A stretch of DNA of 64,000 nucleotides from Geosiphon pyriformis uo1 (lineage: Eukaryota; Fungi; Glomeromycota): positions 350,042 through 414,041 of the forward strand of contig JAAOMT010000193.1 of assembly GCA_016748015.1 (NCBI GenBank). Reading direction: 5' to 3'. The stretch's first letter is position 1; each line of letters starts with the position of its first letter. The translations under genes and the position numbers were made by a program. Shown one piece after another: positions 7,901 to 57,509 of the stretch. The notes below the pieces were generated by a model. That model saw nothing but the letters and a program-made list of their open reading frames with translations. It ran no database searches and was not told the origin of the DNA.

Positions 7901-10751
7901 GGTAGCTGTTGGTCATACTTCATTATTTCTAATGCAGGCACTTATTGAAAATAATTTTTTTCCAAAATCATTACAGATTAATTTTAGTGATTAGTATAAT
8001 TGATCTTTTTGATGTGATATTTGATAAATTGGTGATAGAATCTAATGTTTTTTGTTAGCTTTTCTTTTTCCTTTCTTTTTCTAAGTAAGAGATAGTAATA
8101 ACTCTATTTGAAAATTGTCTGCCTAAAAAACTTAGTATGTTTCTAAAATTGGTTAAAAAATAGGTTCATTAAATTTAATTAATGGTTGTTTTAGAGTTGT
8201 TTTTTAGAAGTGTTTACACATTACAAGTACTTAAGCATGTTGCCTGTTAAAAGTTATCTGAAGTTCCTGTGTGTTCTAATCTAACATAGTATAGGCTTTT
8301 GTTAGTCAATTATTTTTCATAAGAGCTTGATATTGTGTGACTTCTATAATAAGCACTTTGGTGAAAATTTGAATTTCACTGATTTTAAATAAAAAATTGT
8401 TGATTTTTCTTATTGGGGTTTTTGTATTTCCATCTGCAATAATAATTTGAGCAGTAACTGTACAATTTACTCAACAATCTAATTGATTCATGAGTTGTTT
8501 TATAATTATACTACCAGCAGATCTACTATTAAGTATTAATTTAATATTTATTTCTCTTATTTTAACATTGATATATATTGCCATGATTGTTTTGTTTTGA
8601 TTAATAACAGCTCTACTAAAAAAGTTAGAGTTATTCAGGTTGTTAACATTAAATAAAAATATAATAGTAAAGATATAATCTTCAGTGATTGTGGCTGGTA
8701 AAATTGTTTTGATAACCCAATATTAATTCAAAGTAAAAGAATTAATTATTTCAATTATATCTTTCCTTTCTAAAGATGTAATGTTACAAAAATTCAGAGT
8801 TTTTATAAAACTGAGGTATAATGCTTGGTTAAGATATTTAGTTTGCACTAATTACAATAATAGACTATTGTACTATAATAGTCAGGATGATTTATTGCTA
8901 GTTTGCATTTGATTGTTACTGGTATTTCTTTATTTTTAATTATAGTTAATTGCTCAAAGTCTGGATTAGTTATAAGTAAACACTTGGTATTGAAGTATTA
9001 TTGGCACTGTTGTAGGTGGCTGATAGTAATTGTAAGGCATTTGTTGTATGTATTATGGTGGTTAATATTAAGATATAGAATATTGAGATCCTAGAACTTA
9101 AGGATATTTCTGTTGTTGTAGATGTTGATTTCCTCTGTTTTGGTCTGCTAACTTTTTTTAGCAGTTTTAAGCAATATGTCTGGATTTTTGACAATAATAA
9201 CAATTATGGGAATTTGATCTTCAGAGTTGTTATTGTTGTTAACAATTCTGTTATTATTAATATCTATTATTGTTGTTGTCTCTTCATTGGGGTGGCTAAT
9301 AAGTTCTTGCAGTTCTGGCTAAAAATTTCTCAATTTTTTGAGTTAATTTTTTACTTAATTGGATAATTTTTGCATTAATATCTGAGATTCTATTGAGTTA
9401 AGTTAATGGCTTGAATATAATTAGCTTTTTGCTCTGTTAACTCAAAATTATGAGCAAAGATGATTGTGTCTTGTAGGTTTGTTGAATAACAAGGTCTTAT
9501 AAATCATAAAATACTGCTTTTTAATTCCTTAACAAATTGATTGAAAACTTGTGCTGTAGTGTAGTAATCTTTTTCAATTGTTAGTATTTGTTAAAAGACT
9601 TGATTAAACCATTTAAGATAAGTAATTACTGCTTCATGAGTTTTTTGTTTTATTATACTGAATTGATTTTGTAGCTGAATAAGCATATTGAAATTACAGA
9701 AATACTGTAAAAAGACAAGTTTAAAAGCAGCAAAGTCAGTTGGTTTCTTCTCAAGACTTTGGTATTAAGAGTTTGCAGTTCTTGTTAAAAAGAAAGACAG
9801 TGCTTGAATGGTTCTGGTATTATCCTAATTGTTGGTGATAATTGCTTTTTCAGCTTTTGTTATCTAGGTGTATATGTTATTTTTTTTATTAGAGAATTTT
9901 TCTAGTCTGGCAATATTTTGGTAAGCTATTATCTGAATGATAAAAAATAGTTTATTTGTTGATAATAAGAGTTTTGATGGCAGTATACTGTATTGTTTTT
10001 CAGATGCTAATGTTAATTGTTTCTTTTTGTTGTTAGAACCAATAAATGGCAAGATGACTGTTTTTTCTATAGGGATGATTGCTAACTCTGTTATAAGCTA
10101 TGCTATTGGTAGTGTTCAAAAGAACATGTTTTTGCTAGATTGGCTGGCAGTTGGGATAAAATTCTTAAATAATAATTCATATTCTCTCAGAAATTTTGTT
10201 CAAAGATTATTATTGTGGCTCCAAAAGTACAGAGTTCTAGGAATTTTTGAAGTTTTTATTTGTGTTTTTATAAGTTAGTTGAATAGAATTCTACTTTCTG
10301 TGGTCTAATGATATGAAGGAATGATTGATAAAAGAAATCTTGATTTTTTGTTGATTATAGTTCAGATTTGCTTTTGTGTGACTGTTGTATTATCAGATTC
10401 AGACTTAAATTCTATGGAGTTAGGCTTTACTATTTGTCTTCTTTTTACTTAAAAGTACTATTGTGTCATGTATTTTTCGATTTTTCTATCAATTATATGA
10501 AGAGTCTCAGCTATAACTTAAGTAATAGTTTCTATTAAGTATGTCAATAACTTTTAATAAATTTGTTCTCTGAATTTTCTTGTGTCTGTTGCTCAGCCTA
10601 ATAAACAGTCAATTTTGGTGTACAAGTAATAACAGAAATCACTTTTTGTAATAATGGTTTCTAATAGTATCTTTAAGTCTTTCCTAAAATGTTAAAATAA
10701 GACTTTTTCATATAGTAAGTGATTTTTTTCTACTGTCTTAATGGTTGCCAC
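4972..10751 (-). pseudogene. Element A gag-PR-dUTPase-RT-RNase H polyprotein, decayed
   Basis: GTG at 10751; capsid (AYQNIARLEKF) at about 9929; PR LILNSRSAGS at about 8520; dUTPase (VGFDLRY, QVASKSSFAKK, EKIAQAIFL) at about 6780-7160; RT/RH at about 4980-6250; many CAA>TAA and TGG>TAG stops. Confidence 0.85.
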
Positions 10752-14110: not shown

Positions 14111-15088
14111 TGTTACCAGACAAAATTAGAGATATTATTTAGCATGAAATTATCTTATAATTTCTATCATTAATTAGCATATCATTTCAAATTATCACTT
14201 ATTACATTAGCAAAAATGTCCAAAAATTATCATTTAATTAATAACCCAAATTGTACACAACACAAATATAACCTAATTGTAATGATCAATTATGCAATAC
14301 CCTGAACTATGTAACATTCAAAAGTTTGCCGAAATTTGTAGAAATTTGCCAAAATAATTGATAGTTCACCAAAATATCTAATAGTTTGCAGAAATAACTT
14401 GTAGTTTACCGAAATATATCTTTAGTTCAGTGAAATAGTAGAAAATAGCAAAGTTCAAGTTCATAGAATAGTGTTATGACAAGTTGTATAAAAGAAGAGC
14501 TTCTCTTTTCGAGAAAATGTATCTTACTTTAGATTTATTACTTAGAACTATTCTTACACACACAAAAAAAAATAAATATCAAATAATTCGAAAAACCAAA
14601 CTCTTTAAATTGTTGCACTTGGAAAATCCTCAAAACCCAACTAACGTTTTGAAATTGATTAGTTACCAATTTCAGTAAACTGTTAGTGACTTTAGGCCTG
14701 AATAGAAAACGTTTCTCTTGACAAAATTCTATTTCTTTTACATTTTTTTTATTTTCTTTTTATTTCCTTACTATAATCATTAGGGTAGCCTACAGACGAG
14801 ATTCCTGTAGAAGAGTTGACTTTCACAGCAAAATAACTACACATTTTTTTAATAAGCTTCCAAATGAGCATTTCCTAGGAAAGAGTTGACATTTACTACA
14901 ATGTAACTACATAAAGCAACTGGCACGGAATTGGTTATTCCACTTATAAGTCCAGCAGTTCAAATTATAGGAGATAATTTGAAGATAAATTCAGTTACTG
15001 GAGGTTCAACCACATCCAGAAAACGTGAATTCACAGCAAACAAGCATCAACAACAGTTAAAAAAAGAGACCAAAAACCTCCAGTAACA
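14111..15088 (+). repeat. Element C 5' LTR
   Basis: Matches 22954-23936; about 20-bp AGTT..C.GAAAT repeat array at about 14320-14460 and TATA-like GTATAAAAG at about 14486. Confidence 0.97.
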
Positions 15089-15090
15089 TT

Positions 15091-15106
15091 TGGTGCTCTC
15101 CCACAG
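15091..15106 (+). promoter_or_regulatory. Element C primer-binding site
   Basis: TGGTGCTCTCCCACAG, 2 nt after the LTR end. Confidence 0.85.
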
Positions 15107-15133
15107 AAACAACACAGCAAAAATAACTTCAAA

Positions 15134-18100
15134 GTGGCGACCACACCAGACACAACAACTCTAGAGTATTACCAGTCAATTTACACTCACTGCAAGCAAA
15201 AATTCAACATTCCAGGCGGAATTGAAGTTGTCAAGAAATCAGTATACTAATACATTAAAAACCGCATCAACAATTATCTTTTTGGAAATTACAATATCTC
15301 AAAAGTTAGAAGCAATCTTTACAATAATTTAGCACACTATTCACAGTTGGGAACTGAAGACTTTAACAGTGAAACATTTGCCATTTACTTTCACGAACTT
15401 AATTTTAACATTATCAAATACTGTGAAGAAACATATCCAGTACAGTCTTAATACACTATTGATTTTAAATCGGAAACAGAAACAAGCAACAAAGGCAAAA
15501 ACAAATTAAAACAATACTCAAGAACCACCCCAAATACTCCAACACTACTAAAAACAACTGCCAAACATTTACAAACACCTGAACAAGGAACCAGTTCAAA
15601 ATTTCCACTTACTATCACACCTTTTCCAGCTTTACTTGCACAAGCACAAATACCTAATTCACCCTTAAATCGATTTGTAAGACCAGAAGATTTTACATCA
15701 CTCAGAAGTCCCACCAGACAACAAGAACCCTTTCAAACTAGTTCCAATCTCCTTGATTTTCTAGCTGAAAATCAAAGTGAACACTCTGAGACAGCAGCAA
15801 ACGAAGAAAATGACTTTGAAATAACTAAAAAAGAATCAATAGACAGTGAAAACGAAGAAAACGAAATGACAACATACATCGCAAAAATCCCTAAATTTAA
15901 TGGAGAAGATATTGAGACCAGTCTCCAAAAATGGCTTGACCAAGTTATTAAAGCTGGAGATACAAATGGATGGAATGCTGCCAGAATGTTAAGAACAATT
16001 CCCTATTTTCTCAAAGGAACAGCAGGAGAATGGTTTGAAAACTTGGCTGTCCTATTCAATGATTAAAACACTTTCAAAGCAGCCTTTCTTGAACAGTTCA
16101 CCAACAATAATATCTCTATCACCCTTCGCAATTGTTTTCAAAATATCAAACAAGAACCCTCTGAATCTGTATGACTTATATTGGAAAATTCAACAAACTT
16201 CTCAGACAAATTCGCCAACTCGAAACAAACAATTATTATTCCAATGCTCAAATCTTGGATCAATTTATCACTGGTCTAAAAGATAAACTAATTAAAAAGA
16301 TTCACCCACATGTGCCAGAAGATTTAAACTCTGCCATACAGCATGTGAAAAGATACGAAATGGCCATGGAAGAGGCCAATCGCACAAAACTTGTAAATTT
16401 GGCAATTGGAGAAACCAGCTCAACAGCTGAGGAAAAAATTAACCAACTCACAAAAAAGGTTGAAAACTACTTCACCAATTAACAACAACAGCAACCCCAA
16501 AGATATCAACCACCCCAAAGACAAAATCAAAATAACTTTGCACCACTTTCCAATAACCAGCCTCAGAATTGCCATTACTATGAAATCTCTGGCCACTGGA
16601 AAAGAGATTGCAGAAAGCTACAATGAGACCAACAAAATAGGAGTAATCAATGTTACCTTCCACCACAGCAATCTTATTATCAACCACCACTACCAGCTTA
16701 CTATCCACCAAGACTCCAATACCAAAATAACTATTATCAGCTCACTCCACAGCCAATCCAACAGCAATACCAACAACCACTCACACAACATTATCAAGTA
16801 CCTGCTCAAAGACTGATTACACAAAATCAATTCACATCACAAAACCGATACCAAGTAAACAACAATAGAATCAGTTTGAACAACTAATTGGTTCTCTGAA
16901 ATTCCATTCAACTAAGACCCAACTACTACCACACTCAACCCAGTTATTTAACAATGCCAGAAGAACAGGATTTTCACCATACTGCACCCTTGGAAGGTAG
17001 AGCTGCAGCACAACAACAAAACCCTTCTTATACTCTCACCACAATCCCACCAGCCAGAATCGCTGAAAATGCTAATCTTTCAAATATATTTCCTTTTGAG
17101 TTCAAAGTAAATGAGTCACCATTCCTGCTTAGCAATGCAGCCGCCAATGAACAAAAAGCAATCACAGCTATGTATACTGAAGCAAAAGTCGAAGGAAAGA
17201 CAATTCACTTGATCCTAAACAGTGGATCCACCGGAAGCATTATTATCTACCAGTTAATGCAACAGTTGAAGAGAAATGTTGACTGACCAGCTCAAACAGT
17301 AATTGTCACTGCTGATGGCATGAAAAAGACCCCAGTAGGAGAAATTGACAATTTTCCATTCACTCTTGATGGAATTACTATTCCAGTCAAAGTTCTTATA
17401 ATGGACGCACCCCAGTACCAAGCTCTTGTCGGAAATGATTGGCTTCAAAAAGCCAATGCTAATCTGAATTGGGAAACACAAGAGTTAACAATCTCCTACC
17501 AAAGACAACACGCCCGAGTACCTGCCACTTGTGGTATATTCAACAAATGCTCTAAAAAAGCCTCAGCTTTTGAATTCGAACCGGAAGAGGAAAAACCCCT
17601 TATTAAAACATTCATGGCTTTTGAATCAACGTCCAACTGGGCCAATGAAACAGAACAAGAACATTTTACCCCACACTCTGAACCCGAAACCTCTAGATGG
17701 AATATTCCTTACTTAAAACCCAAACCAAAGAAATAACACCCCTATATTCCCCTTAAATATAAGGACTGCCACAAGAAACTATTATCAATGGGAGCCTGCA
17801 TTTCATCTGAAAAAGAATATGAAAATCATACTTGTTATTACTGCAAGGCATGCCACAGAGAATGATGGAGCCATCTAATAAAAAGGAGCAGAAAATGGGA
17901 CAACATCCCTTGTTTGACTTGTGGAGATATGCTATTGGGAGAATACAATTAGATTGATATAGCCATGAGAGGAGGAGTCTGCGATCAGACCTGCTAATAT
18001 GCTTTATCAATTTCAGAAAAAGTAACAAACTTTATTACTACTCCCATAATGCTGAGATGATTTTTGACTTAGCAATGGCATTAATTAATAGAGCTACCAA

Positions 18101-20708
18101 AGAAGATATTTGTCAAATGAAAGAAGCAGAATACATTAAATACACCATGGAATTAGCTGGATTCGATTACGAAGATAAAGTAAAAGTCTACCACCAAATT
18201 GCAAGTCACACCTACCCAATCCAAGAAGCTCAAATTCAACGATTAGAACAAATAAACATTAGGCTATGTGAAGAATGCATTATGTCTTGTGATGAACAGT
18301 GGTGTCTTGAATGCTATGCTTTTAGTATCCCCTTGCCCAGCAAAAATGATGAAAACAAAATTGAATTTGGAGAACCTGAAGCAATGGAAGAAATTGAAAC
18401 AACACCTATCTACCTTATCAAAAATTAGCCTGCCTTACAACTTAAATACTTTAACAACAACGGACATAGAATAAAATCCGAAAAAGCACATGAAATTGAT
18501 GCTGGATATGATCTAAGATATCCAGGCAAGAATACTCTTGTTCTCAAACCCAAATTCCTCACAAAAATCAACCTCAAAATTGCACTCAAAATTCTGCCAG
18601 GAGCAATAGTTCAAATTACCTCCCGGTCCTCTCTGGCAAGCAAAGGAATCAATGTCAGAGGAGGAATAATCAATGCTGGATATACTGGAGACATTACAGT
18701 GATGCTTCAAAATGAAACTGACAAACCATTTAAGATTGAACATGCTGAAAAAATTGCCCGAGCTATTTATCTACTCTTAATCAACATTTTGGGTTTGCAA
18801 CTAGTCAATCAAAGAGAACAATTAGGAAAAAGCAATAGAGGAACCCAAGGTTTTGGTTCAACTGGATAATTCACAGTTCCAGTTAATATAGCTCTTAACA
18901 CACAAAACAAATCCCACCAGATTCTCAGACTTCCACAACCAATTACCATCTCACTCTTTGGAGAACATCCAAAAATCTACACCTGCCCAAAGCCAACAAC
19001 CACACAACAAATTTTTGAGTCCAATGAACAAGTCTGCTTAAAACATAATATTTTGATCCCAAACATTTATATTCCAGAAGGAACAAAGAAAGTCCGAGTT
19101 ACTTTTTACAACTCCAATAATTACCCAATAATTTTATTAAATAATTTAGAAATTGGAGTTATTCACAGTAATATATTTCAACAAGAATTACCCCAAACAG
19201 TCCCCGATTTCTCTAAAATTATTGGATATTCACTACCAAAAATCAACCCAAACCCCAGCTCCGAAAACTACCATGTTGTCATGGAAAAACTATCTCAAAT
19301 CAACATGGGACAACTTGAACCACAACAACAGACCCAGCTCAAAGAGCTAATTGCAGAATTTGCCAATATCTTTGCTGAAAACAACAATGACTTAGGAAGA
19401 ACCAATTTGGTCCAACACCAAATTTATACAGGAGATGCCAAACCAAGAAGACAACAAGCATATTGAGTTGCTCCAGAAAGCCACCAATTCATCTGAGAAG
19501 AAGTACAACAAATGCTTAACAATGGGCTCATCCAACCCTCCATGAGTTTTTGGGCTTTACCTGTAGTGCTAGTTAAAAAGAAAAATGGAAAGATCCAATT
19601 TTGTGTTAACTATCGACAACTCAATAGTGTTACAATTGGAAACGCCTATCCTCTTCCCCGAATTGATGACATGTTAGATGCCCTTGGAAAATCCAAATAT
19701 TTTTCAACACTAGATTTAGAAAGCAGTTACTGGCAAGTTGCTATGAATCCCAAAGATTGTCCCAAAACAACATTTACCACCCAAGGCAAAAATTACAAGT
19801 TTAATGTAATGCCTTTCGGATTATGCAATGCACCAGCAACGTTTTAGAGATTAATAGATGTTGTGTACCAAGGACTTCTTTGGAAGTCAGTAGTCGTTTA
19901 TCTTGATGATACTGATGTTTATTCTCCATCATTTGAATTATACTTAAAACACCTGCAAGAAGTTTTTCAATAATTATGAAAAGCAGGACTAAAACGCAAT
20001 ATCGAAAAATGCTACTTTAGAAAAACAAGCCTGGCTTTCCTTGGTCATATTGTTAGTAAAGATAGAATCAAACCAGACTCTGGAAAAATCAGCATTGTCA
20101 AAAACTTCAAAACTCCTTGAAACACTACAGAACTAAAAGGATTCATAGGATTAGCATCCTACTATCGGAAGTTTATCAAAAGATTCTTGGAAATTACAAA
20201 ACCCCTCAACCAGCTCACCACCAAAAACGTTGAATACAAATGGACTACCAAACACCAAAAAGCTTTTGAAATTCTCAAGAAAAAACTGACAACAGCTCTA
20301 ATTCTCACCTACCCGGATTTCAGCAACCGATTTTGACTAGCTACAGATGCTTTGTATACTGCTTTTGGTGCCATTTTATCACAACTAGATGACAATGGAA
20401 ATAAGCAAGTAATTGCTTATGCTAGCAGAACATTAAAACTAGCTGAGAAAAACTACCCTGCCACAGAACTAAAAACAGCAGCTGTAATTTGGGCCCTACA
20501 CCACTTCAATCTTTATCTCAGGCCTAAAGAATTCGATATTATCACTGATAATATTGGACTCAAATGGCTTCAGAACAAAAATACTCAGCTGAATGCAAAA
20601 CAAACCCGATGGACAAGATTTCTAGTAAACTATCAATACATAGTACATCACAAACCAGGAAAACTCCACACTAATGTTGACTGTCTCTCCAAAATGAGAC
20701 AAAATTAG
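15134..20708 (+). pseudogene. Element C gag-PR-dUTPase-RT-RNase H polyprotein with point stops and small indels
   Basis: Capsid ATG at 15866; CCHC knuckle remnant CHYYEISGHWKRDC at about 16570; PR LILNSGS at about 17212; RT YPLPRIDD and YLDD (19899-19910); RH ORF 20352-20708 ending HKPGKLHTNVDCLSKMRQN*. Confidence 0.93.
18429..18866 (+). pseudogene. dUTPase domain within the element C polyprotein
   Basis: Stop-free stretch with all five trimeric-dUTPase motifs: DAGYDL, TSRSSLA, GGIINAGYTGDI, EKIARAI, RGTQGFGSTG. Confidence 0.92.
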
Positions 20709-20760
20709 AAAAACACAAAAACCAACACTCAACTTAACCAACCAAAAGAGCCAACAAACA

Positions 20761-22144
20761 ATGAATTTAAAAAACTACAACAATCTCAAGCAATATTTAG
20801 AAACATTAACAATCCCAACAGATTGGTTTCCAGATGAAAAACATTGACTACAACAATAAGCCAAACAATATTTTTTACACAACATTATTTATCATCGAAA
20901 TTTCAAAAACCCAAACAAACCACTCAGATTAATACAAGAACAGAAAAAAGAGACTATATTATACAACATACACTCAGATCCTTCATCAGCCCACTTTGGA
21001 AAAGACAGCACCACCCAAAGAACACTAGAATACTACTTTTGGCCTCAAATGAAAAAAGACATTCATGAATATGTCAAATCTTGTGATAATTGTCAAAGAA
21101 GAGGAGAAACTTGCCCTACAGAACCTTTAAATCCAATCAAAGTTGGACAGCCTTTTAACAGAGTTGGTATCAATTTAGTCGGACTACAACTTATTACAAA
21201 CCAAGGAAACCATTATATTGCAGTAGCTGTAGACTATCTCACCAAATGGCCTGAAGCCAGAGCCATTCAATGGGCAGATGCAAAATCAATAGCAAACTTC
21301 ATCTACGAAGACATCATTTGTAGACATGGATGCCCAATAGAATTTTTATCTGATCAAGAAACACATTTTGTGAACAATTTAATCCAGAAAATTTGTGGAT
21401 GATTTAATGTTAAGAGACCATTATTTTCACCTTATCATCCACAAACAAATGGACTTGTAAAATGGTTCAACAGAACATTGTGTAAATTATTAGCCAAAGT
21501 TTCAACCAATTTTGAACAAGAATGGGATTTCTTTATTTCATCAGTGTTACTAGTATATAGGACACTAAAACAAGATACCACAAAACACACACCATTTGAT
21601 TTAACTTACGGAAGGACGGCAATGTTACCAATTAGTTTCACAGTGAAAACATACCCAGCACAATCAATCAATGAAAACAATTTCCAAGAAATGCTTCAGC
21701 GAAGAGCCTACACTCTGCTTAGCACATTGGAAGGAAAACAACGAATAGCAGCCACCCATATTGAACACTTCCAAGCTCAACAAAAAGAACAGCATGATGA
21801 CAAATTGCCTCCAGTCACCAATGAATTTAAAAATTGGAAACAAAGTTCTCTTACACAGAACTAAAGCTAAAAAACAATGAAGTAGAAAATTTGAGAATAA
21901 ATGGGATAGACCATTCTTTATCCATGAAGTTTTAGGCAACGAATCATAAAAGCTAAGACTTGATGACAAAATTCTAGCAAAAATTGCACATGAAGATTGT
22001 TTGAAACACTATAATTCCAGGAACAATCCTGAACCATTAATTCTACAAATTGGTACACATTCCCCTTTAATCAATCCCAAAAACATTCCCCGAAATTTAG
22101 AACCAATAGTTGTTATTAAACAGCCTCCCAACTTGAACACTTAA
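20761..22144 (+). pseudogene. Element C integrase, free-standing ORF
   Basis: ATG at 20761 (MNLKNYNNLKQYL), 52 nt after TAG at 20708; HHCC (HSDPSSAH...CDNC), core VDYLTKWPEA / SDQETHF, decayed GPF motif (WDRPF); no chromodomain. Confidence 0.93.
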
Positions 22145-22265
22145 TTTAAATTTATTATTATAGTTATCTTCTTATAATTTAGAAACAATCTCACAAAAAC
22201 AAAACAAAAATAACATAAAAACCCATACACCAAAAATAATTTTCTTTTATTTCAAATTGCTTATA

Positions 22266-22985
22266 ATGACTATTCCTCAAAATATTTAACAATTATCCCA
22301 AAAACTAATGTTAGCTTTAAAAACAATACCCGAATTATCCATTACTGTTACTGGAAACCACATTAATTATATCCAAACAGAAGTAGTTACAAATTTAGCC
22401 CCATATTCACGAAAATATCACCCATATAAGAAGAACACAAGAAGTTATACTGGAATTCACCTGTCAGAACTTTTAAAGCTTGCTTTAAGAGAAAACCTAA
22501 TGCTCATTCTGATTAATATTCTACCAAATACTACAATTCAACAAAGACTTCAACTGTGTCTCAAGGAGGAAAACACTGAATATCCTCCAATCTATAGATA
22601 TTTTCACATTGGAAAAACACTCTATGAACGGAAACTGGAACTTACAACAGCAAATCTTATAAAAGAAGCTATTCAGAAACAACTCTACAATGAATTCAAG
22701 ACAACAGCTGGATCAACAAACAGTTGCTACAGGTTCAGAGCTGCTCTTAGACTTTATGATCTATTCCACACCTGTGAAAACGTACTACAAAACCCAATTT
22801 TTCAATCTTTGAAGATTCAATACATTGAAAAGCTCACAGAACTGAAATTTCAACAAATTTCAGACCAAATTTTTTCAATAATTTTGGATTATTATCTGGA
22901 AATGACAAACAGTACTTGGACTTCGACGGAGCTCAGTCTTGAGGAGGAGGTTATGTTACCAGATGAAATTAGAGATATTATTTAG
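22266..22985 (+). CDS. Element C ORF3, accessory protein of unknown function (about 239 aa; open 22308-22985)
   Basis: 225-aa open frame; an in-frame upstream ATG at 22266 is separated from it by one likely CAA>TAA stop; runs through the PPT into the LTR; homologous ORFs occur in A, B, E and G. Confidence 0.8.
22941..22953 (+). other. Element C polypurine tract
   Basis: GAGGAGGAGG-TTA directly before the 3' LTR. Confidence 0.9.
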
Positions 22986-23936
22986 CATGAAATTATCTTA
23001 TAATTTCTATCATTAATTAGCATATATTATCATTTCAAATTATTACTTATTATATTAGCAAAAATGTCCAAAAATTATCATTTAATTAATAACCCAAATT
23101 GTACACAACACAAATGTAATCTAATTGTGATGATCAATTATGCAATACCCTGAACTATGTAACATTCAAAAGTTTGCCGAAATTTGTAGAAATTTGCCGA
23201 AATAATTAATAGTTCACCAAAATATCTAATAGTTTGCAGAAATAACTTGTAATTTACCGAAATATATCTTTAGTTCAGCAAAATAGTAGAAAATAGCAAA
23301 GTTCAAGTTCATAGAATAGTGTTATAACAAGTTGTATAAAAGAAGAGCTTCTCTCTTCGAGAAAATGTATCTTACTTTAGATTTATTACTTAGAACCATT
23401 TTTACATACACAAAAAAAAATAAATATCAAATAATTCGAAAAACCAAACTCTTTAAATTGTTGCACTTGGAAAATTCTCAAAACCCAACTAACGTTTTGA
23501 AATTGATTAGCTACCAATTTCAGTAAACTGTTAGTGACTCTAGGCCTGGATAGAAAACGTTTCTCTTGACAAAATTCTATTTCTTTTACATTTTTTTTAT
23601 TTTCTTTTTATTTTCTTACTATAATCATTAGGGTAGCCTACAGACAAGATTCCTGTAGAAGAGTTGACTTTCACAGCAAAATAACTACACATTTTTTTAG
23701 TGAGCTTCCAGATGAGCATTTCCTAGGAAAGAGTTGACATTTACTACAATATAACTACATAAAGCAACTGGCACAGAATTGGCCATTCCACTTATAAGTC
23801 CAGCAGTTCAAATTATAGGAGATAATTTGAAGATAAATTCAGCTACTGGAGGTTCAACCACATCCAGAAAACGTGAATTCACAGCAAACAAGCATCAACA
23901 ACAGTTAAGAAAAGAGACCAAAAACCTCTGGTAACA
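22954..23936 (+). repeat. Element C 3' LTR
   Basis: Matches 14111-15088. Confidence 0.97.
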
Positions 23937-28100: not shown

Positions 28101-31100
28101 TTTGTTGTTCCATTTACTTTGTCATTTTGAGTAGTCATACTGTTTTTTGTGGCATGGCTTATAGTAATAGTGGATTTGTGTTCAATAGTCTTTATTAGGT
28201 GCTATCTATGCTTCCATGGAAGAAAGTTTTTTGCCGCAATCTTGGCATTTAAGAGGGATATATGATGGTTTTTTGATGAGTTTATGTGAGTATAATTGTT
28301 CTTAGCCATTGGTTATTTCTTCTATGGCTGTGGTTTTCTCAGATTTGTCTTTTTCTTTTTCTTTTTCTTTGTTGTCTCAAGAGAGTACTGATAGCAGTTT
28401 ATTGTGATTGGTGTTGGTCCACAAGACTTAGTAGGCTTTTTAGGTAGGTTTTTTTTTTCTTCTTCAAGTTCTATAAGTGGTGTTGGTGTCATGTTTGTCT
28501 GAAAGTGGTTGTACATGGCTGGTACATGTGTGTGCTGACTGTTTTAACTGAGTTGAAGCTCTTGTGTAGTCCAATTAAGCACTGCATAAGTTTTAAACAG
28601 CCAGTCATTTCCAACAAGAGCTTGGTATTGGGTTGTTTCCATTACAAAAACCTTGATGGGTACAACAATGCCATTGATTTTAAATAGAAAGTCATTAATT
28701 TCGCCAATTGGAGTTTTGGTGGTCTCATCAGCAATAATTATTCTAATGCTGGCAGCATGATCAACTCAGCAACCTAATTGGTCCATAAGTTGTCAGGTAA
28801 TTATGCTGCCAGCTAATCCACTGTCTAGGATCAGTTTAATGAAATGGCCATCAACTTTGGCATTAGTATACATTGTAATAATAGATTTGTTGTCAAAGGC
28901 AGTTCTACTAAATAATGAAACTAGGGCAGTTTTTTTGAGTTCAAAAGGAAATATGGTGGCAAGTATTTTATTTTTGGTGCTGGTTACTGGAAAAATATTA
29001 CTAGTAAGTGGCTGCTTTTGATTGGGTTCCTGGTTGTGGGGTGAGATGTTTTTTGGGGTAACTAAGAGACTTAAATAGTGTTGGGAATTTGGGTTTTGGT
29101 TGTACCCAGTTTTTGAACTCCACTGGTGTGATCCTAATGGTTGGTTTGATGAACTGGAAATCAGTTGGTGGACAACCATTGCTGATCTTTAGTTTTGAGT
29201 GACTCTTAATCTGGAATTTCCTGATGTTATTTAAGTTGAGTTTGATAGTAGTGTTAGAATTTGTTAAGGTTAATATATTACTTGTGACTGTAGTGGTTGA
29301 TATATTACAGACATTGCCAATTAATATATTAGAGGTAAATATAATTGCTGTGTTATTGGTGCTTAATACATTGGCTAAGTCACTTGAGCATAATATAGTT
29401 AATGTTAGTAGTGTTCTTATAATTAATTACTAACATAATTCTGAGTTTGGAGTTGGTGATCAGAGTTTTGATACTGATTACCCAATTGTTAATTACTTAA
29501 CTATTTACAATATTCAAATTGCAGATGTCTTTGTTTACCACAATAGTAGCACACATGTATTTTCTACTGCCACTATTGATTGGTTGAAAATGATAGATGC
29601 AATTGGTTTTGGAAACAATTCATGTTTTCCTGATTATTTCATTATTGTAGAAGTTGATAAATGGCTTGATTGTTAGTTAAATATCTCTTTAATTTCTGAT
29701 TGATTGATTTACTAAATTGCTTCAGTTTAGAATCCAAATCAAATGATTTATTTATTACTAGATTTACAGCTTGGACATGGTTAGCTTTGAGTTTAGCTGC
29801 TTCAAAATTCTTAGTGTTTGTGACTATAGCTTGAAGATCTGCTGGATGTAATGAATGTATGTGTTAAAAAATGCTACTGCACAGGCCTCTAATGAATTGA
29901 TTTAGAATTTGTGGTGCTGTGAAATAATCAGCTTGTATTGCCTGAATTTGGCACAGATTTCTGTAGAAACATCCAAGATAGATAGTGACTGCCTCATTTT
30001 CTTCTTGCTTGATGGTAATAAAGGTATTGGCTAGACAATTAATACTATTATTGTTGCTAAAATATTGTAGAAATGCAAGCTTGAATGCATTGAAATCCTG
30101 AAGTTTGTTGGCCATGTTTTGATACTATAAGTTGATAATATCCTAAAGAAAGTATGGGATGGCTTGCATAGCTCTGGCATCATTCCATCCATTGGCTGTG
30201 ATGGCTTTTTTGACATCATTTAGCCACACTTGGACATCATTCTCTTTACTGGTGAATTTTTTGATCTTGACAATTGGTGTGTATGCCATTTGTTGTTGTT
30301 GTTGTTGTGACAGTTGTTAAAGTGATTGCTATAATTGTTGTTAATGTGATATTTGCAGCTGTTGAATCAATTCAATTGATGGCTAATTGATCATGTTTAT
30401 TGGAGATAAGTTTTGTGGATTAATTATGTCAGAGTTTGGATTATTCTGATTTTGGGGAGTTTGAAGATTTGGAGTTTCAATTTCCAGATTTTTTAAAATC
30501 AGGTTTTGCTGAGTTTAAACATTTGGGGTTTCAATTTCCAGGTTTTTGACAATTAGGTTTTGGTAATTGAATTCCTAATTGTTATTTTTCTTTTTTTCTG
30601 ATTCCATTACTTTCTAAGGACTCATAATTCCAAAATCTGGTGAAAATAGTAATAATCAAAATTTTGATGGTATTGGTGATCACAATTTAAATTCTTCAAA
30701 ATATTTACCATAGGTTCCTAATAGATCAATTTTTGATTGGTTATTTTAAAATAATATTCATGCCAATGAGATTTTCGTGTTTAATGTAAGCATGCCTGCT
30801 GATGAGATGTTAATGGCACTTCCAAGTATATAATGATATGATAGATTGGTTGGTAATTCAAGTTTTGTTTTCTTTTAAGTAAATGGTTGTATTTTTTGAG
30901 ATGTTATTACTAGTGTTTGTAGTTTTTCTTTGTCTTTATTTGCATAGGTAATTGGATATCTTTGTTGAGTGTAAATTTCAATTTCTTTATTGATTTCAGT
31001 AAGGATTGCTGTGAAATTATAATTTACTGGTAGGCTGGTATTTTAGATTAATTTGTTGTAGAAATTTCCTCTGGCTGAATTGGTTTCTATTAGTACTCCT

Positions 31101-31252
31101 AGCAAATATGAGATTCTTTTATTAACATAGAAACTAAAAGCTAATTTTGCTAATATATGATTGTTAATTAATCCCAAGTATTGACAGTAATGTTGAAACA
31201 AAGATTTGGCAAATCCTAAATGGTTTGTCCCTATTCTTTCTGGTTTTGTCAT
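25145..31252 (-). pseudogene. Element B gag-PR-dUTPase-RT-RNase H polyprotein, decayed
   Basis: Capsid ATG at 30289 (MAYTPI); PR LILDSGLAGS at about 28820; Cys-rich region; dUTPase at about 26960-27370 (IGFDLRY); RT 25598-26275 with YLDD decayed to YLHN. Confidence 0.9.
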
Positions 31253-35100: not shown

Positions 35101-35850
35101 ACATAAATATTGATTAGATAATTTTTTCAAGTTTTAAGATAATAGTAATTCTTTTTAAAACTATTAATTGATAAAAAAATTTTCTAATGAACTGATTTTT
35201 TGATATTGTTGATTTTTTTCTACAGCTAAAAAATTAATATTCAATATAAAAAATTTTTTTATTGTTACTTCAATTTGAGTTTTTACTATCTTAGAGTTAA
35301 TTTATCTTTTTTTAAAAAAAATATTAAGAAAAAAAAGAAAGAAATCTTTATTTTTATCTATTTTAAAGTCAATTATACTAATAGAAAAACCATTATTCAA
35401 ACCAGTATTAAATTTTTTAGCTTTAGAAGTTATTACAGCTCAATCAAAAAGAGAATTATTATTAGATTTTATCAGTATTATCAATCTTATTGTCATTGAA
35501 TTCATTATCTATATCTGAATATATATTATCATTAAAACCAAATTTAACCAAAGAAATTTTATTATTATTATCAGAGTGTTTGATATTATTTACAAAAACT
35601 CTTTTTTTTTAAAAGAAAATACTATCAACAAAATCATAAAAAATCTCTTTAAGCATCTTTTTTTTAGACATATTACTATTTAAAACAGTCTTTAGATATG
35701 TCATAAAAGGATTATTAGCTTGAAAAATATTGAAAAAAATGCAACTAAAAAATAAAGTAAAATAAAAAGCTTCTTTTTTAAAAAAATGCTCTTTGAAAAA
35801 TTTTGAACATAAGAGAAAAAGAAGTTTTTTTGTAGTTTTTTAATTTAATT
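32149..35850 (-). mobile_element. LINE 5' part: ORF1 (about 35671-33824) and ORF2 APE endonuclease and linker (from about 33824)
   Basis: APE motifs in ORF 33105-33494 (VLNRNFN = GGDFN; WSNSRGVKKAIDHIF = T...IDYI); ORF1 remnant 34523-34771 followed by a decayed knuckle; NLSDKKAAG pre-RT motif at about 32260. The 5' end is approximate. Confidence 0.8.
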
Positions 35851-37500
35851 TTATAATCAAAAATTAAAACATTTATTAATAATACAATCTAAATTAAATA
35901 TAATTAGATTTATATTAAATATATTTTAAATATTATAAGTAAATTTTTTAGGATTATAAATATTTTAATAAACAATAAAAAAACTGTAACTATTTTTATT
36001 AATCAAAAAATTTAGAATATTTTTTTAAGCATTAATAGTTTTTTAATTTTAATTGCTAAAAAAAATAAGTTATATAAATATTTTGGTATTTATTGTTAAC
36101 TAATAAACTTTTTAAGTCTAGTTTAATTAAGATTTATTTTAATATTAAAATTTTCAATATAATTTTGAAAAAAACTATTTTAAATAAATAATTTTATTGT
36201 ATAATTTTAATAATTTTATATTTTATTATTACTTATAAATTTTAATACAAAAAATATTTGTTGTAAATAGAATATAATAATAATAAAAAAATTAAAATCA
36301 AAAACTAATTTGTTTAAAAAAATTTTTAACAAAATTATTTACTATATTTTTTATAATTTGAAAAATTTTAAATAAGTACAAACTAAGAACAAATTAACTT
36401 TTGTAATTTTTTTCTTAAATATTAAAAGTATTTTAAATTATTTATTTGATTATAAATATTTAGACTTGTAAATATTAAATTAATTACTTAATTATTTTTT
36501 ACAATTTTTTATAAAATTGAAAATTAATCTAAAAAAAATTTTTTGTTAAAGTTTTTAGTATTTTTTGAATTACAACTTATTATTTATTAATAATTTTTTT
36601 AATATATTTTACTTGTTAATAATACATTAATATATAAAAAATTTTTTTTTAAATTTTACAATATGATTTATTTTTTAAAAAGATTTAAAATAGTATTTAT
36701 AAAGTAATTATTAAACAAAATTAGTATTGTTTTAATTAATAATGTTTTTAATCTTAAAAAAAATTTAATTCTATTTTAAATTTTTAATTGATAAAAAATT
36801 ATGTAATATTAGTATAGTTTTTTTGTATAGTTTTTATTAATATAATATATATGATTTAAATAATTTTTGTTTGATTTATAAAAGTCTATATATAATAAGT
36901 AAAATTATTATTAATATATATATTAATAGTTTTCTTAAAATTTTAAGTATTTTTAAAATATTTAGTAAAACTTTTGTATTTTTTGTCAATTTAAATTTAA
37001 ATATAAAAGTAGTAATAAATAGTTTGGTTTTTTCCATGTTAATAAAATTGTAAATTATTATTTAGTATTAAAATATATTTTATTTTTTAATAAAGTTTTA
37101 ATATATTTAATATATTTAATAATTTTGGTAATATTATTAAAACTATTAAAGTTTATAAAATAACAATTAAAAAAACAAATTATAGCAAACTTATAAACAT
37201 AATAATTGAAAAATTAAGCATAATAATTGGAAAAAATTGAAAAAAATTAACAATTATTATTGTAAAAATAGAAAAAATTTGATACAAGATTAAAAAACCA
37301 GTAAAAAAATAATTAATTTTATATTATTTAACAAGTTTTTTTATTTTATGATATTATTTATATTTATTACAATCTTAACACCAAACACACTTTTAACTAA
37401 ATTATTATGAATTATTTATTTAATATTATTTAGTAATTTTATTCAATTTTACAATATTAAAAACTAGTTTAGCAAAATCAATTTACATCACAAAATTATT
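35850..37500. other. Extremely AT-rich low-complexity tract
   Basis: Very few G/C by eye; no credible ORF. Confidence 0.7.
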
Positions 37501-38029
37501 TTTAATTAGCTTATTCAAAAAATCATAGTTATAATTAATTAATTTGCAAAAATAACAGACGACAACTTCCAAATTAATTTACTATTTAACCAAAATACTT
37601 AATAATACCAAAAAAACACATATTTTAATAACTGCATTTTAAAAGATAAAGTTATAGCACAACATTAAAACTTTTTAACCAACATTATAATCTTACCAAC
37701 AATACAACAACATTTAAAAAAAAAACCATTACAGCAATGTATTTTAAAGCAACAATAGAAAGAAAAACTATTAAACTAAAATATTGACAAACCAATCCAA
37801 ACTGTTATTGTATAGCAAAGATTATAAAAAAAAACTCCGGAAGAAATTAATAAATTCTTTTTTTGAAATTAATAATTAAAGTTCTTATTATAAAAACTCA
37901 AAAACTAAAAATTCTAAATTCATGACAATTTATTAAAGTACCAACCACTTGTGGTACTTTTAATAAACATTCAGAAAAAGCTCAGTGTTTAAATTTGAGA
38001 AGAAAAAAGAGAAAAACATTTATAGCACT

Positions 38030-42657: not shown

Positions 42658-45343
42658 TTTGGTGCTTTTTGTGAGATATAATCTTACAGAAAACTAGCAT
42701 CAATAACAATTATTCAAAAGTAACAGAATTAGAAAAAAGAAGAACAAACCATCTAAGATTCACCAAATTTTTATTTCAACATTACTGTCAACACTTAGGA
42801 TTAACTAACAACCAACTATTAGCAAAATCAGCCTTTAATTTCTATGTCAATGAGAAAATTTTATATTTGCTAAGAGTACCAGTAGAAACTGACTTAGGAA
42901 GAGAAAATTTCTACAATAAAATAATTCAAAATACCAGCCTATTAGTAAATTATAATTTCAAGGCAATTTTTATTGAAATCAATAGAAAAATTGAAAATCA
43001 CACTTAGCAAAAATACCCAATCACCTATGTAAACATAGACAAAAGAAAACTACAAACACCAGCAGTAATATTTTAAAGAATACAACCACTTACTTGAAAG
43101 AAAACAAAAGTAGAATTACCAACCAACTTATTATATTACTATATACTTGGAAGCACTATCAACATTTTATCACCAGATACATTCACTTCAAATGCAAAAC
43201 CACAATTAGTCTAACTCTTATTTCAAAGTAAACAAAAGAAAGCAGAGTTATTAGGAATCTATAGCAATTATTTTGAAAGATTTAAATCACAATTACTGAC
43301 ACCATCAGAATTTTGATCCTTACCACCTTAACCAGATTTCAGAATCACCAGTTCTTGAAAAAGAACCAATTCAGAAGAAAAGGAGGAGGAAAATCAAGAA
43401 TTTAATTACCAAGACCCAATCTCAGAAAACCTGGAAAATCAAACTCTAATTGATCAAACTCAACAAAATCAAAACAATCCAAACCCTGACATTGTTAATC
43501 AGCAAAACTTACTTCTAGAACTTGTAATAGATCTATCACCAGTTGCTGCATCACTACAACAGCCAATACAATACCAGCAACAATTACAACAGCCATCCCA
43601 ACAACTATTAATTGTACCAATAGCATTTGCTCTAATTGTCAAACTTGAGAAATTTACTGGCAAAGAGAACAATGCTCAAATATGGCTTAACAATATAAGA
43701 AAAATCATTGCAATTAATGAATAAAACAATACTAGAGCCCTTCAAGCCATTCCATATTTCTTACAGGATACTACCAATTCCTGGTATTAGAGTTTAGTTT
43801 AGAAATCTCAAACTTTTAATGCATTCAAATAAGAATTCCTAAGATATTTTAGCAACAATAATAGTATCAACTGCCTAACCAATACATTTATCATTATTAA
43901 ACAAGGAGATACCAAAGCAATCACTACTTACTTGGGAGGCTTTCACAAGAATCTACACCAAATTCAGATAATACAAGTTGATTATTTTACAGTGCCACAA
44001 ATCTTGAATCAATTTATCAAAGGCCTACACAGTAGTATCCTCTAATATATATGTTTATTGCATCCAGCAAATCTTTAAGCCACAGTTACAAACACCTGAG
44101 ATTTTGAGACAGCTAAATTAGAAGCCAATTATGCCCAAGCTGTAAATTTAGTAATGAATGGATTATCTGACTTGAATTCTAAACTAAAACAATTCAGTAA
44201 TTCAATCAATCAAAAACTTAAAGGATACTTAGCTAACAATCCAGCAATTTATCAATTTTCACAACAACAAAATAATCAAGAAAATACAAATTACTCCCAA
44301 AATCAGATGTGTTCAGTATTATCAAGTGATCAATTATGGCAACAAAATATGCATGTTTACTACAATTGTGGTAAACAAAGTCATATCTGGACTAACTGCT
44401 AAGTTTATAATAATAATTCACAATCAGGAAATCAGTATTAAAATTCTAATTGTCTGTTTTTAATTCCAAAATATCAATCAAACTTAGAATTATACCAACT
44501 GAATTACTTACTAATAACACAACAGCCAATATACACACCTCTAATTTATCATCCATCAAATCCCATAATTTATTAACCACTGTAGCCATAAATAATTTAT
44601 TAAAACTCATTAATTCAAACACCATTATTAAACTCAGCTCATTTGACATCAAAAAATCAAATACCAAAAGTCACTTATTCTCAACAAAACTGGAGATTAG
44701 TGATAGTTATGCATCAACTAATCTCCAGTTTATTAAACCAACCATCAGGATCTTGTCAGTAGAGCTCGGGAATTGAGTACACCCAAAACCTGAATTTTCA
44801 GAACTATTTAAGTCTACTGGTTACCCCAAAAGACACCTTATTCAACAATCTAGAATGCATTCTAAAACAAATAATTAACAGCAATATATTTCTAGTCACT
44901 ATTACCAATGACAAATTATTAGCAGCAATTTTTTTCTTTGAAATTGAGGAACCAACTGAAGTACCTCTTTTTAATAAAGCTGCCCTTAATATAAAACTCA
45001 TTACCATAATGTACACTAATGCCAAAGCTAATGGTCAGTCTATCAAGCTGATTCTTGATAGTGGATCAGCAAGCAACATAATTACATGACAACTCATAGA
45101 GCAATTAGGTCACTGAGTTGATCATACTGCCAGTGCCCAAATTATTATAGCTGATGGAGCAACCAAAACTTTTATTGGTGAAATTAATGACTTTCCTTTT
45201 GAAGTTAATGGCATAATTATACCTATTAAAGTCTTAATTATGGAAGCCATTCAATACCAAACTCTTATTGGTAATAACTGGCTGACTAAAGCAAATGCTG
45301 TACTTAATTGAACCACCCAAAAATTGCAATTCAGCCAGAATAG

Positions 45344-51300: not shown

Positions 51301-54300
51301 GTTCCATTTTCCTTGCTGTTTTGGTTGTTCAAAGCATTCTAGAATGCAGAAGCAGCAGTAAAATTTGGTTGCTGTAGAGTATTCCTTATTATCACTACAG
51401 CATACATCTATTGATAATATTTTCTTATCACAATCAATGCATACCAGTTTTGGTTAGGGATAGTTAGATAGTTGTGATGGAGTATAGATGTATAGAATAT
51501 AAGTGGTAATAGTGATTAGTATTGGCTCTTCTTTTTTTTTCCCTTTTTCTTTGTTATTTTCTTCTCACTTCCAAGTTGGTGTCAGTTCAGTACTATCACC
51601 ATCAATCCATCATGTTTGGTTGGTATTTTCAGTAAGTTCCTCTTTTTGCTTTTCCTTTCTATTGTTATTCTAGGATAGTATTAGTGATAGTTCATTGTGA
51701 TCATTGTCAACCCAGAAAATTTGATAGATTTCTCAAGTAGGTTTTTTTTTTGTTGTCAAACTTGATAAGGGGTGCTGATGGCATGATGATAGGTTTGAAG
51801 TGACTACACATGGCTGGTACACATGTGTGTTGATTATTCTGGTTAAGTTAAAGCTTTTGTGTATTCCAATTGAGTGTTATGTTAGTTTTGAACAACCAGT
51901 TGTTGTCAATGAGTGCTTGGTACTAAGTGGCTTTCATGACTAATATCTTGATTAGTATAATGATGCTGTTAACTTCTATGGGGAGGTTATCAATCTTGCC
52001 AATTGGAGTTTTGGTCGCTTCATTGGCTATTATGATTTAGGCGCTGACAGTGCAATCAACTCGGTAATCTAATTGGTCCATGAGTTGTCATGTGATAATG
52101 CTGTCTGCTGACCCACTATCTAATATGAGTTTGATAGAGTGACTATCAACTTTAGCATCAGTATATATAGTGGTAATTGGTTTTTCTTTGAGCATGGCTT
52201 TACTGAACAAGGGCATAGATGACAGTTCCTCGAGTTCGAACAGGAAGATTGCTATTAGTGATTCATTATTGGTGATGGTGGTTGAAAATATATTATTGAT
52301 GAGTGGTTGTGTTTGGTTGGTTTTTATGTAATTGGGTAAGACATTTTCTGTGGTAATCAGGAGACTTAAATAGTTCTAAAAACTCATGTTTTGAGTATAT
52401 CTGGTTTTTGAACTTCACTAATGTGATTCTAATGGCTGGTTGGATAAACTGGGAATCAGTTGGTGGACAACTATTGCTGATCTTCAGTTTTGAGTGACTC
52501 TTGATCTGAGATTTCCTGATGTCATCTGAGCTGAGTTTGGTGGTAGTATAAAAATTTGTTGGGGTTGATATATTATTTGTGGCTGTAGTTGATAAATAAC
52601 TGGTGCTGGAGTCTGATAAATGAGTGGTTAATAAATTGGCAACTGTATCACTAGTATGTAATTTGATTAACATATTTCTGAGTTGGGTTGATATCTTGAA
52701 GTTTGAAACTGGCAATTGGAATTTTGATATTGATTTTCCAATTGTTGGTTATTTATTCTTAATCTGCAGTAAATTTTCAAATGTTCTTGTTTACTACAGT
52801 AGTGGTAAACATATGTCTTCTATTGCTACTGTTGATTGGTTAAGAATAATAAACATGACTGATTCTGGAAACAATTTGCATTTTCTTGAGTATTGTATCA
52901 TTGTGAAAGTTAATAAATTGTCTGATTGTTAGCTAAATATCTCTCTAATTTTTGATTAATGGAATTACTGAATTGTTTCAACTTAGAATTCAATTCAGAT
53001 AATCCATTCATTACTAAATTGACAGCTTAAGCATGGTTAGCTTCGAGTTTGGCAGATTCAAAATTCTGTGCATTGGTAACTGTATCTTGGAAAGTTTGTA
53101 AGTGCATTGAGCATATGCATTGAAAAATACTACTGCACAGTTCATAAATGAACTGGTTTAGAATCTGTGGTGCTGTAAAGTAATTTGCATTAATTGCTTG
53201 TATTTGGTGCAAGTTTTTATAGAAGTGTTCTAAGTAAGTAGTAACTGCTTCAGTTTTTCCTTGCTTGATAGTAGTAAAAATATTGGCTAAGCAATTAATA
53301 CTGTTATTATTGCTAAAATATCTCAAGAACTCAAGCTTAAATGTATTGAAATTTTGTGGTTTGTTGACCAAGCTCTAATATCACAAGTTGGCAGTATTCT
53401 AAAGGAAGTATAAAATGGTTTGCATGACTCTTGTATCATTCCATCTGTTGGCTGCAATGGTTTTTTCCATATCGTTCAATCACACTTGGGCATTATTTTT
53501 TTTACTGGTGAATTTTTCAAGTTTTATTATTAGGGCATAGGCTATTAGTTGTTGTGGTAATTGAAGTGGTAATTGCTAAGATAGTATTGGCAGCTGTTGA
53601 AGTTGTTTAGCAATCAGACCAATTGGTTGTTGATTAATAACAATTTTTGAAGATAAGTTTTGCTGATTAATTAACTTGGAGTTTGGATTGTTCTAAGTTT
53701 GTTGGGTTTAAATATTCAGAGTTTCAACTTCCAGATTTTTTGCAATCAGATTTTGGTAATTAAATTCTTGATTCTCTTCTTTTTTTTTTTTTTCTTCTGA
53801 TGCCATTATCTTTCAAGAACTTGTGGTTTTGAAATCTGGTGAAGATAGTGGTAATCAAAATTCTGATGGCATTGGCAATCATAATTTAAATCCTTCAAAG
53901 TAATTGCTATAGGTTTCTAATAATTCTGCTTTTTTTTGTTTACTTTAAAATAAAAGTCATCCAAATGTTGATGTCACATTTAATGTAGATGTGTTTGCTG
54001 ATACAATATTGATGGTACTTCCAGGTGTATAATAATATAATAGATATAGTAGAAATTCAATTTTTTGCTTTTTCCATGTTGGTAATTGTATTTTTTTTGG
54101 AGTTACTGCTGGTGTTTATAGCTTTTTTTTACCCTTATCTGTGTAGGTAATAGAGAATTGTTGTTAAGTGTATCTTTTAATTTCTTGATTAATTTCTCTA
54201 ATAATTAGTGCAAAACTATAATTTTATGGTAAGCTGGTATATTGGATTAATTTTGTATAGAAATTTTCTTTTGCTGATTTGATGTTAACTGGTTTTTTAA

Positions 54301-54451
54301 GAAAATCTGTGATTCATTTGTTGACATAAAAGTTGAAGGCTGATTTCACTAAATAATAGTTGTTGGTTAAGTCTAATTGTTGACTGTACTATTAAAACAA
54401 AGATTTAGCAAATTCTAAATGGTTTGTTTTTATTATTTCTGATTCTGCCAC
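48334..54451 (-). pseudogene. Element E gag-PR-dUTPase-RT-RNase H polyprotein, decayed
   Basis: GTG at 54451; capsid ORF 53027-53371; PR LILDSGSADS at about 52110; dUTPase at about 50160-50560 (GGIIDAEYVGNI, KIAQAIFL, QGFGS); RT at about 48800-49600. Confidence 0.9.
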
Positions 54452-57456: not shown

Positions 57457-57509
57457 TAAAAGTGGTGCTCTCTATGAGGTTGTCAAAATCCACTTTGTTT
57501 CTTATTTGT

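Follow-up and report, generated by a model that had tools for sequence, protein, structure and literature searches.

A GTG-headed N-terminal Gag extension in Ty3/gypsy retrotransposons of Geosiphon pyriformis: comparative sequence analysis of a candidate non-AUG start

The AAV capsid protein is made in a long form started at a non-AUG codon and a short form started at AUG (VP2 and VP3). The furovirus coat protein, through its N-terminal extension, is likewise described in long non-AUG and short AUG forms (PMC3542737). Murine leukemia virus (MLV) glyco-Gag is started at a CUG located in frame upstream of the Gag AUG and adds 88 residues including a signal sequence, and is described as a secretory protein that is not in virions (PMC5120145, PMC3542737). 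PEG10, a domesticated mammalian host gene derived from a retrotransposon, has a Gag-type frame started from an upstream CUG, which adds 34 residues, and from an AUG, as proven by mutagenesis, and its description mentions neither a long AUG-free stretch nor an extra folded domain (PMC2800197). In rice tungro bacilliform virus (RTBV), a weak non-AUG start (AUU) is followed by approximately 900 nt without AUG, after which ribosomes reach the capsid-bearing ORF; ORFs I and II are separate and a ribosome shunt is needed (PMC5902531, PMC3542737). Near-cognate codons including GUG are reported to start 2-30% of ribosomes when A is at -3 and G at +4 while the rest scan on (PMC3542737), and filamentous fungi are described as making N-terminally extended proteins from non-AUG starts, at less than 1% when one reporter was assayed in vivo (PMC5487733). 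The literature searched, a limited collection, yielded no LTR retrotransposon whose Gag is extended from a non-AUG codon; the nearest case in it was Ty1 internal initiation, which is a different design (PMC5408680).

Decayed Ty3/gypsy elements and their leaders

Self-comparison of the window, the whole 64-kb stretch of Geosiphon pyriformis DNA that was analysed, revealed a cluster of decayed Ty3/gypsy LTR retrotransposons (elements A-F), in a genome of which 41% is reported to be covered by LTR elements (PMC11952901). Element C (14111-23936) is a Ty3/gypsy LTR element by its LTRs, target duplication, primer binding site (PBS), Ty3-type capsid and pol order. The 5' LTR (14111..15088, + strand) has TG...CA ends and is 96% identical to the 3' LTR (22954..23936, +), the 4-bp target duplication CCAT was found on both flanks, and the PBS (15091..15108, +) is recognisable from a TGG that adjoins the LTR end in six elements. 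The capsid and zinc knuckle of Gag (15866..16630, +, end approximate) are decayed in C, and the close relative P0003, which is 87% identical to C over the extension, matched Retrotrans_gag (E 5.6e-15), Ty3_capsid (E 6.1e-10) and zf-CCHC. The pol region of C (17179..21441, +) encodes protease, dUTPase, reverse transcriptase, RNase H and integrase, that is, the Ty3/gypsy PR-RT-RH-IN order, with the dUTPase domain at 18486-18866 (+) between protease and RT (E 7.5e-19). The gag end and the protease of C share one reading frame (16170-17450, +), so that no gag-pol frameshift is evident in C. A stop-free frame of 231 codons without a Pfam match lies between the integrase and the 3' LTR of C (22290-22985, +) and is possibly a second accessory gene.

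The elements studied formed three families, namely C, B/D/E and A, with RT identity to B of 51% for C and approximately 54% for A. Decay in the copies takes the form of C>T and G>A changes. CpG is nearly gone from the whole window and C>T at CpA is also frequent, a RIP-like pattern in which CpA decay turns many Gln and Trp codons into stops. Element F (observed at 57462-57980, +) has an LTR like that of the B/D/E family and an unrelated pre-capsid frame of approximately 170 codons with two Met codons early in it and an AAA-GTG that overlaps the PBS, and might represent either a chimera or another, fourth variant. The region 35833-40557 contains direct and inverted stretches of 200-570 nt, approximately 65% mutually identical and unrelated to the elements studied.

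A TATA-like box in the LTR of C (14487..14494, +), 604 nt before the PBS, is a candidate promoter, and its offset is similar in B, D and E (600-623 nt). Downstream of this box the family-C LTR holds two AUGs. One opens uORF1 (14864..14914, +), which has 16 codons in the gag frame and a stop at 14912 and in which C has acquired a TAG at 14876 by decay (14877 A>G in 94%); the other opens the start-stop uORF2 (ATG TAA, 14901..14906, +), where no T>C variant was seen at 14902. As these AUGs precede the GTG, ribosomes would need to leak past them or reinitiate. The LTR also includes a long pyrimidine tract (14720-14784, +) that ends in TAG-G and resembles the 3' splice site of a 5'-leader intron.

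The GTG codon, its reading frame and the scarcity of AUG

A GTG at 15134 (AAA-GTG-GCG; candidate start 15131..15139, +) with A at -3 and G at +4 lies in frame with the capsid ATG (15866..15868, +) and 244 codons upstream of it, as the initial annotation had placed it. The sequence AAAGTGGC occurs three times in the window, in C, A (G at 10751, - strand) and E (54451, -), while codon 1 is GTA in D (42720) and ATG in B (31252), again in agreement with that annotation; the ATG of B is likely a G>A lesion. The homologous extensions have 274 codons in A (9930..10751, -, GTG start), 321 in B (30290..31252, -), 300 in D (42720..43619, +) and 302 in E (53546..54451, -, GTG start).

Family counts were taken from computed gene models of decayed copies and from contig depth in one sample, with two additional runs contributing 1 and 0 further contigs to the family set. 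In family C, codon 1 was Val in 80/98, Met in 13/98 and Leu in 5/98 (98 of the 120 gene models listed cover the codon), all of the Leu residues sitting after predicted splice joints. In B/D/E, 78 of 95 models hold the motif and read Val in 74, Leu in 2, Ile in 1 and Met in 1. When 336 proteins were pooled, codon-1 Val was present in 104/127 and 97/109, two small subfamilies being richer in codon-1 Met (3/16 and 2/4), and both known family-A members (A and P0343) read K-V-A. The codon was seen as DNA in C, A, E and the family-C contigs, and Val is a proxy for it elsewhere. Positions 15128-15160 had zero variants at a threshold of at least 12% of family-C contig depth. The residue before Val was K, T, I or N, encoded by A-starting codons, in 200/201 models and the next residue was mostly Ala, which together place A at -3 and G at +4. 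The 13% share of codon-1 Met in family C equals the median E>K share (0.13 over 27 columns), a measure of the G>A background. An ATG consensus at this position, against which the initial annotation had staked its reading, was therefore not found, with Met at background level in C and in 1/78 in B/D/E. By the sequences compared, Val, hence GTG where the DNA was seen, is the family state at codon 1 in three families. GTG was the sole near-cognate codon common to one position ahead of helix 1, and no hairpin was found after it in 5/5 copies (z -0.8 to 0.4).

Upstream of the GTG the frame of C contains stops at 14912, 14975 and 15026, which are family-wide as 14975 and 15026 had no variant and 14912 had T>C in only 16% (all 33 variants with at least 12% of depth). 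An in-frame TAA at 15110 is present in 48% of family-C depth and an in-frame stop lies inside the PBS of A, D and E. The B/D/E residues before Val were divided by a rough pattern sort into three multi-copy groups (69, 14 and 13 of 97) that represent three frames of the same leader DNA, which means that the length of the B/D/E leader changes by non-multiples of three. Downstream of the GTG, B, D and E differ by four indels (6, 54, 9 and 9 nt), all of them multiples of three, and the extension is in frame to the capsid Met codon in 5/5 copies. A frame that is broken upstream and kept downstream suggests that coding begins there, and the start of coding appears to be at about the GTG. The 244-codon extension of C is in frame with the capsid as had been claimed but is not open, with TAA at codons 39 and 106. 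The family reads C at both sites (15248 in 97% and 15449 in 90% of depth; calls here and at 15811 were taken from 40 of 106 variant rows), so both stops are C>T lesions of C, and no family-wide stop was found within the 240-320 codons. The capsid ATG encodes the first family-wide Met (M in 105 gene models, columns 244-245).

Candidate starts further upstream were rejected. Read-through from an LTR AUG without splicing would have to cross the three family-wide LTR stops, and 0/120 models hold the LTR frame contiguously. The upstream model starts 'MELAIP' and 'MGLLF' look like ACG decay, C and F keeping ACG/Thr; HQV-T and HQV-M were counted 9 and 7 times.

A single ATG in any frame was confirmed in 15091-15865 of C, at 15810, and the guess that it arose from ACG proved right, with C at 15811 in 66% of family depth. 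The expected number was 7.1 (1,000 dinucleotide shuffles, P=0.001). The same length downstream of the capsid ATG in C had 16 ATG versus 15.9 expected, so that the earlier description of pol as ATG-rich is to be replaced by a count at expectation. The other copies hold ATGs, with 10 in B (start codon included), 8 in E, 4 in D and 4 in A, all below the shuffle means of 17.8, 13.8, 9.9 and 10.8, respectively (P 0.005-0.025). Depletion against shuffled controls, which had been proposed as a check, was consequently seen in 5/5 copies; the downstream control of A was also low (6 ATG versus 10.6, P=0.04). None of the 12 ATA sites of the C extension was ATG in the family majority (manual check against column counts). 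Met made up 7/26,842 and 59/20,790 aligned residues in the extensions and 0.9-1.5% downstream, and the extension alignments had no Met-majority column before the Met majority at the capsid start. For out-of-frame ATG, codon-order shuffling gave an expectation of 34.0 in the extension, where 18 were observed, and of 19.7 in the capsid, where 27 were observed. When the protein was held fixed by synonymous permutation the extension had 18 versus 15.6, which is no depletion in a comparison that CpG decay biases upward.

The predicted helical domain and its linker

The extension had been described as a helical domain of about 100 residues followed by an S/T/P-rich and acidic linker, and the AlphaFold2 model and the composition agree with this description. 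The predicted four-helix domain is N-terminal (15134..15442, +, approximately 100 codons, with the stop lesion at 15248 in C) and was modelled as four helices with pLDDT of approximately 90 in one member each of two families. The linker (15443..15865, +) is S/T/P/Q/N-rich with an acidic end, is predicted to be disordered (pLDDT <50) and carries the stop lesion at 15449 and the decay-made ATG at 15810.

From Val onward C and B/D/E were aligned over 108 columns at 22% identity (hhalign 94.6%, E 7e-8), and the extension of A was 21% identical to that of C. Transversion-only dN/dS among B, D and E was 0.88 for the domain, 0.68 for the linker and 0.08 for the capsid, with the domain and linker values not distinguishable from neutral (P=0.49 and 0.27) in pairs that are few and not independent. 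Substitutions were mildly conservative within families (P 0.04, 0.16 and 0.02), the values between families being 0.40 and 0.86. Evolution of the helical domain is fast, under selection that is either relaxed or positive, two cases between which the B/D/E data do not discriminate. The coding constraint that the initial annotation had called for was found in part: frame, predicted fold and homology persist from one family to the next, and the domain is near-neutral by dN/dS.

No signal peptide or membrane segment was found in the extension, the best 19-residue hydropathy being at most 1.15 in 6/7 natural proteins, while a value of 1.68 came from one decayed copy, within its linker. Sequons numbered 0-6 per extension and were inconsistent, the Gly2 needed for myristoylation is absent with Ala as the second residue in all three families, and the extension pI of 4.7-8.1 reflects no consistent basic charge. 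Pfam, PDB sequence and Atlas searches with the domain gave zero matches, and Foldseek gave no match at E 0.001 and no significant viral structure match. Regarding a matrix fold, the best fold matches (Z 7.1 and 7.3) were to unrelated helical proteins, while archaeal filamentous virus coat proteins recurred (Z 5.0-6.7, rmsd 3.6-4.6) without ranking above unrelated rows; the fold matches listed include no retroviral matrix protein, which leaves a matrix fold compatible with these searches. The four-helix domain is therefore without a recognised relative in the sequence and structure searches made. Matches to the extension of C were hypothetical proteins of Geosiphon pyriformis (best 120 of 306), and no relatives from outside this species were among the protein matches listed (120 of 306, 95/95 and 1/1). 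A representative search (best 150 of 314) gave 120 new proteins, of which 114 matched C or B/D/E by BLAST and 6 had no domain match. Metagenome and viral contig scans for relatives gave zero matches.

Proposed translation of the extension and comparison with known systems

It is probable that these fungal Ty3/gypsy elements produce a GTG-started long Gag and an AUG-started short Gag by leaky scanning. The GTG, which has a strong context and lies 240-320 codons ahead of the capsid ATG, would start a minority of ribosomes (by analogy a few to approximately 30%), and most would scan the AUG-poor stretch of 750-950 nt to the capsid AUG. A weak start, an AUG-poor stretch and a conserved capsid AUG would be the layout expected if both starts were used, as in RTBV. 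The long Gag would be the minor product and the short Gag the major one, and as gag and protease share one frame in C the choice of start would apply to Gag-Pol too. The role is the weakest step of the proposal. Most likely, particles made mostly of short Gag would take up the long form by way of its capsid domain, and the fast-evolving helical domain would be displayed on a flexible tether as a host-facing accessory module in localisation or counter-defence. The GUG start and two Gag isoforms of the initial annotation gained comparative evidence, from which we infer both the initiation and the isoforms. Weighing against them are the near-neutral dN/dS of the domain, the only mildly conservative substitutions, the lack of out-of-frame ATG depletion with the protein held fixed, the richer codon-1 Met of two small subfamilies, the two AUGs in the family-C LTR and the missing hairpin after the GTG.

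A more tentative proposal is that, in a lineage of fungal LTR retrotransposons, an ancient GUG start tunes the ratio of the two forms of Gag (and of Gag-Pol) and that the minor form brings a new, fast-evolving four-helix domain to the particle, where it engages a host factor. If true, the retrotransposon would have its own equivalent of a retroviral accessory protein, one that annotation based on AUG starts overlooks, and long AUG-free 'leaders' of fungal retrotransposons could hide an accessory domain. Gene finders bridge the extension with invented introns in most family-C gene models. How an element sets its Gag isoform ratio could be tested simply with this system, which also provides a new small helical domain for study.

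Other readings of the extension differ in which form is the main one and in how the GTG is reached or bypassed. It is unlikely that the main structural protein is the long Gag started at GUG, with a matrix-like domain later cut off by the protease and an AUG-started short form that is minor or regulatory. In its favour, all copies and families examined carry the extension, for which a good fold is predicted, PEG10 is described as preferring its upstream CUG (PMC2800197), GUG can be efficient (PMC3542737), and the capsid AUG of B/D/E is preceded by a Pro codon, so that C is at -3. This reading does not fit the missing Gly2 and the lack of a consistent basic charge, however, and the clearing of AUG over 750-950 nt is best understood if the capsid AUG has to be reached by many ribosomes, while near-neutral evolution of the domain would be unusual for a stoichiometric shell protein. 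At the other extreme, the GTG would be unused if the extension were a vestige that once coded and now serves only as an AUG-free scanned leader. The near-neutral transversion dN/dS and the weakly conservative substitutions are in keeping with this, but 240-320 codons without a family-wide stop, indels that keep the frame only downstream of the GTG, and homology and predicted fold kept between families at RT identity of approximately 51-54% make a vestige distinctly improbable.

The GUG start would also be unneeded if an LTR AUG exon, for example uORF1 (14864) with a donor at 14903, were spliced to an acceptor after the PBS. In C, phase 0 is common to the donor at 14903 and to the acceptor after 15106; A, C, D and E each have a CAG behind the PBS, and gene finders splice there. 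The acceptor at 15106, offered as an alternative in the initial annotation, is present in C but is not a family-wide feature: 43% of depth has G at 15105, so that the CAG at 15104-15106 seems to have arisen from CGG by decay, the acceptor codon reads R, W and Q in 5, 8 and 8 of 21 models, and the TAA at 15110 would end the fusion in about half of the depth. In B/D/E the distance from acceptor to GTG shifts frame between groups, and splicing leaves the kept GTG context and the AUG depletion unexplained. These observations weaken the splice alternative, which we regard as doubtful, slightly less so than the vestige. Least probable, with very little to be expected of it, is that the GTG is reached by reinitiation or a shunt after the short LTR uORFs, which would give the same two Gag forms. 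The 16 codons of uORF1 and the start-stop uORF lie 220-270 nt before the GTG, and in RTBV approximately 10% of shunted ribosomes are reported to start at AUU after a short uORF (PMC5902531), but the transcription start is only guessed from the TATA-like box and the uORFs were checked family-wide in family C only.

Leaky scanning from the GTG to the capsid AUG, the preferred reading, resembles MLV glyco-Gag in its in-frame near-cognate start upstream of the Gag AUG (here a GTG known from sequence only) and in the long and short Gag with a common C-terminus proposed here (PMC5120145, PMC3542737). The initial annotation's likeness to glyco-Gag held for this translation logic but not for the protein, as no signal or membrane segment was found. 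In place of the 88-residue CUG-started product of a retrovirus, the fungal retrotransposon, which is without a recognised env, has a GUG, 240-320 residues, no hydrophobic segment and a predicted soluble four-helix domain. Judged on its sequence, the extension is not a glyco-Gag, lacking the signal anchor of that type II membrane protein. PEG10 is alike in combining an upstream non-AUG codon with an AUG for a Gag-type frame (PMC2800197). RTBV is also a reverse-transcribing element with a non-AUG first start and then a long AUG-poor stretch, a likeness here at the sequence level, but the extension is in frame with the capsid in 5/5 copies and is not a separate ORF. Furovirus and AAV differ as unrelated viruses with unrelated folds and CUG or ACG starts.

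Compared with a typical Ty3/gypsy (Metaviridae-type) element, LTRs, PBS, Ty3-type capsid, zinc knuckle and PR-RT-RH-IN are all features in common, and the GUG-headed extension of 240-320 codons, the dUTPase between PR and RT and the extra 3' frame are not. In the sources consulted, non-AUG Gag extensions have so far been described for a retrovirus and a domesticated gene. The feature is real, and the translation logic proposed for it is already known from MLV glyco-Gag and PEG10.
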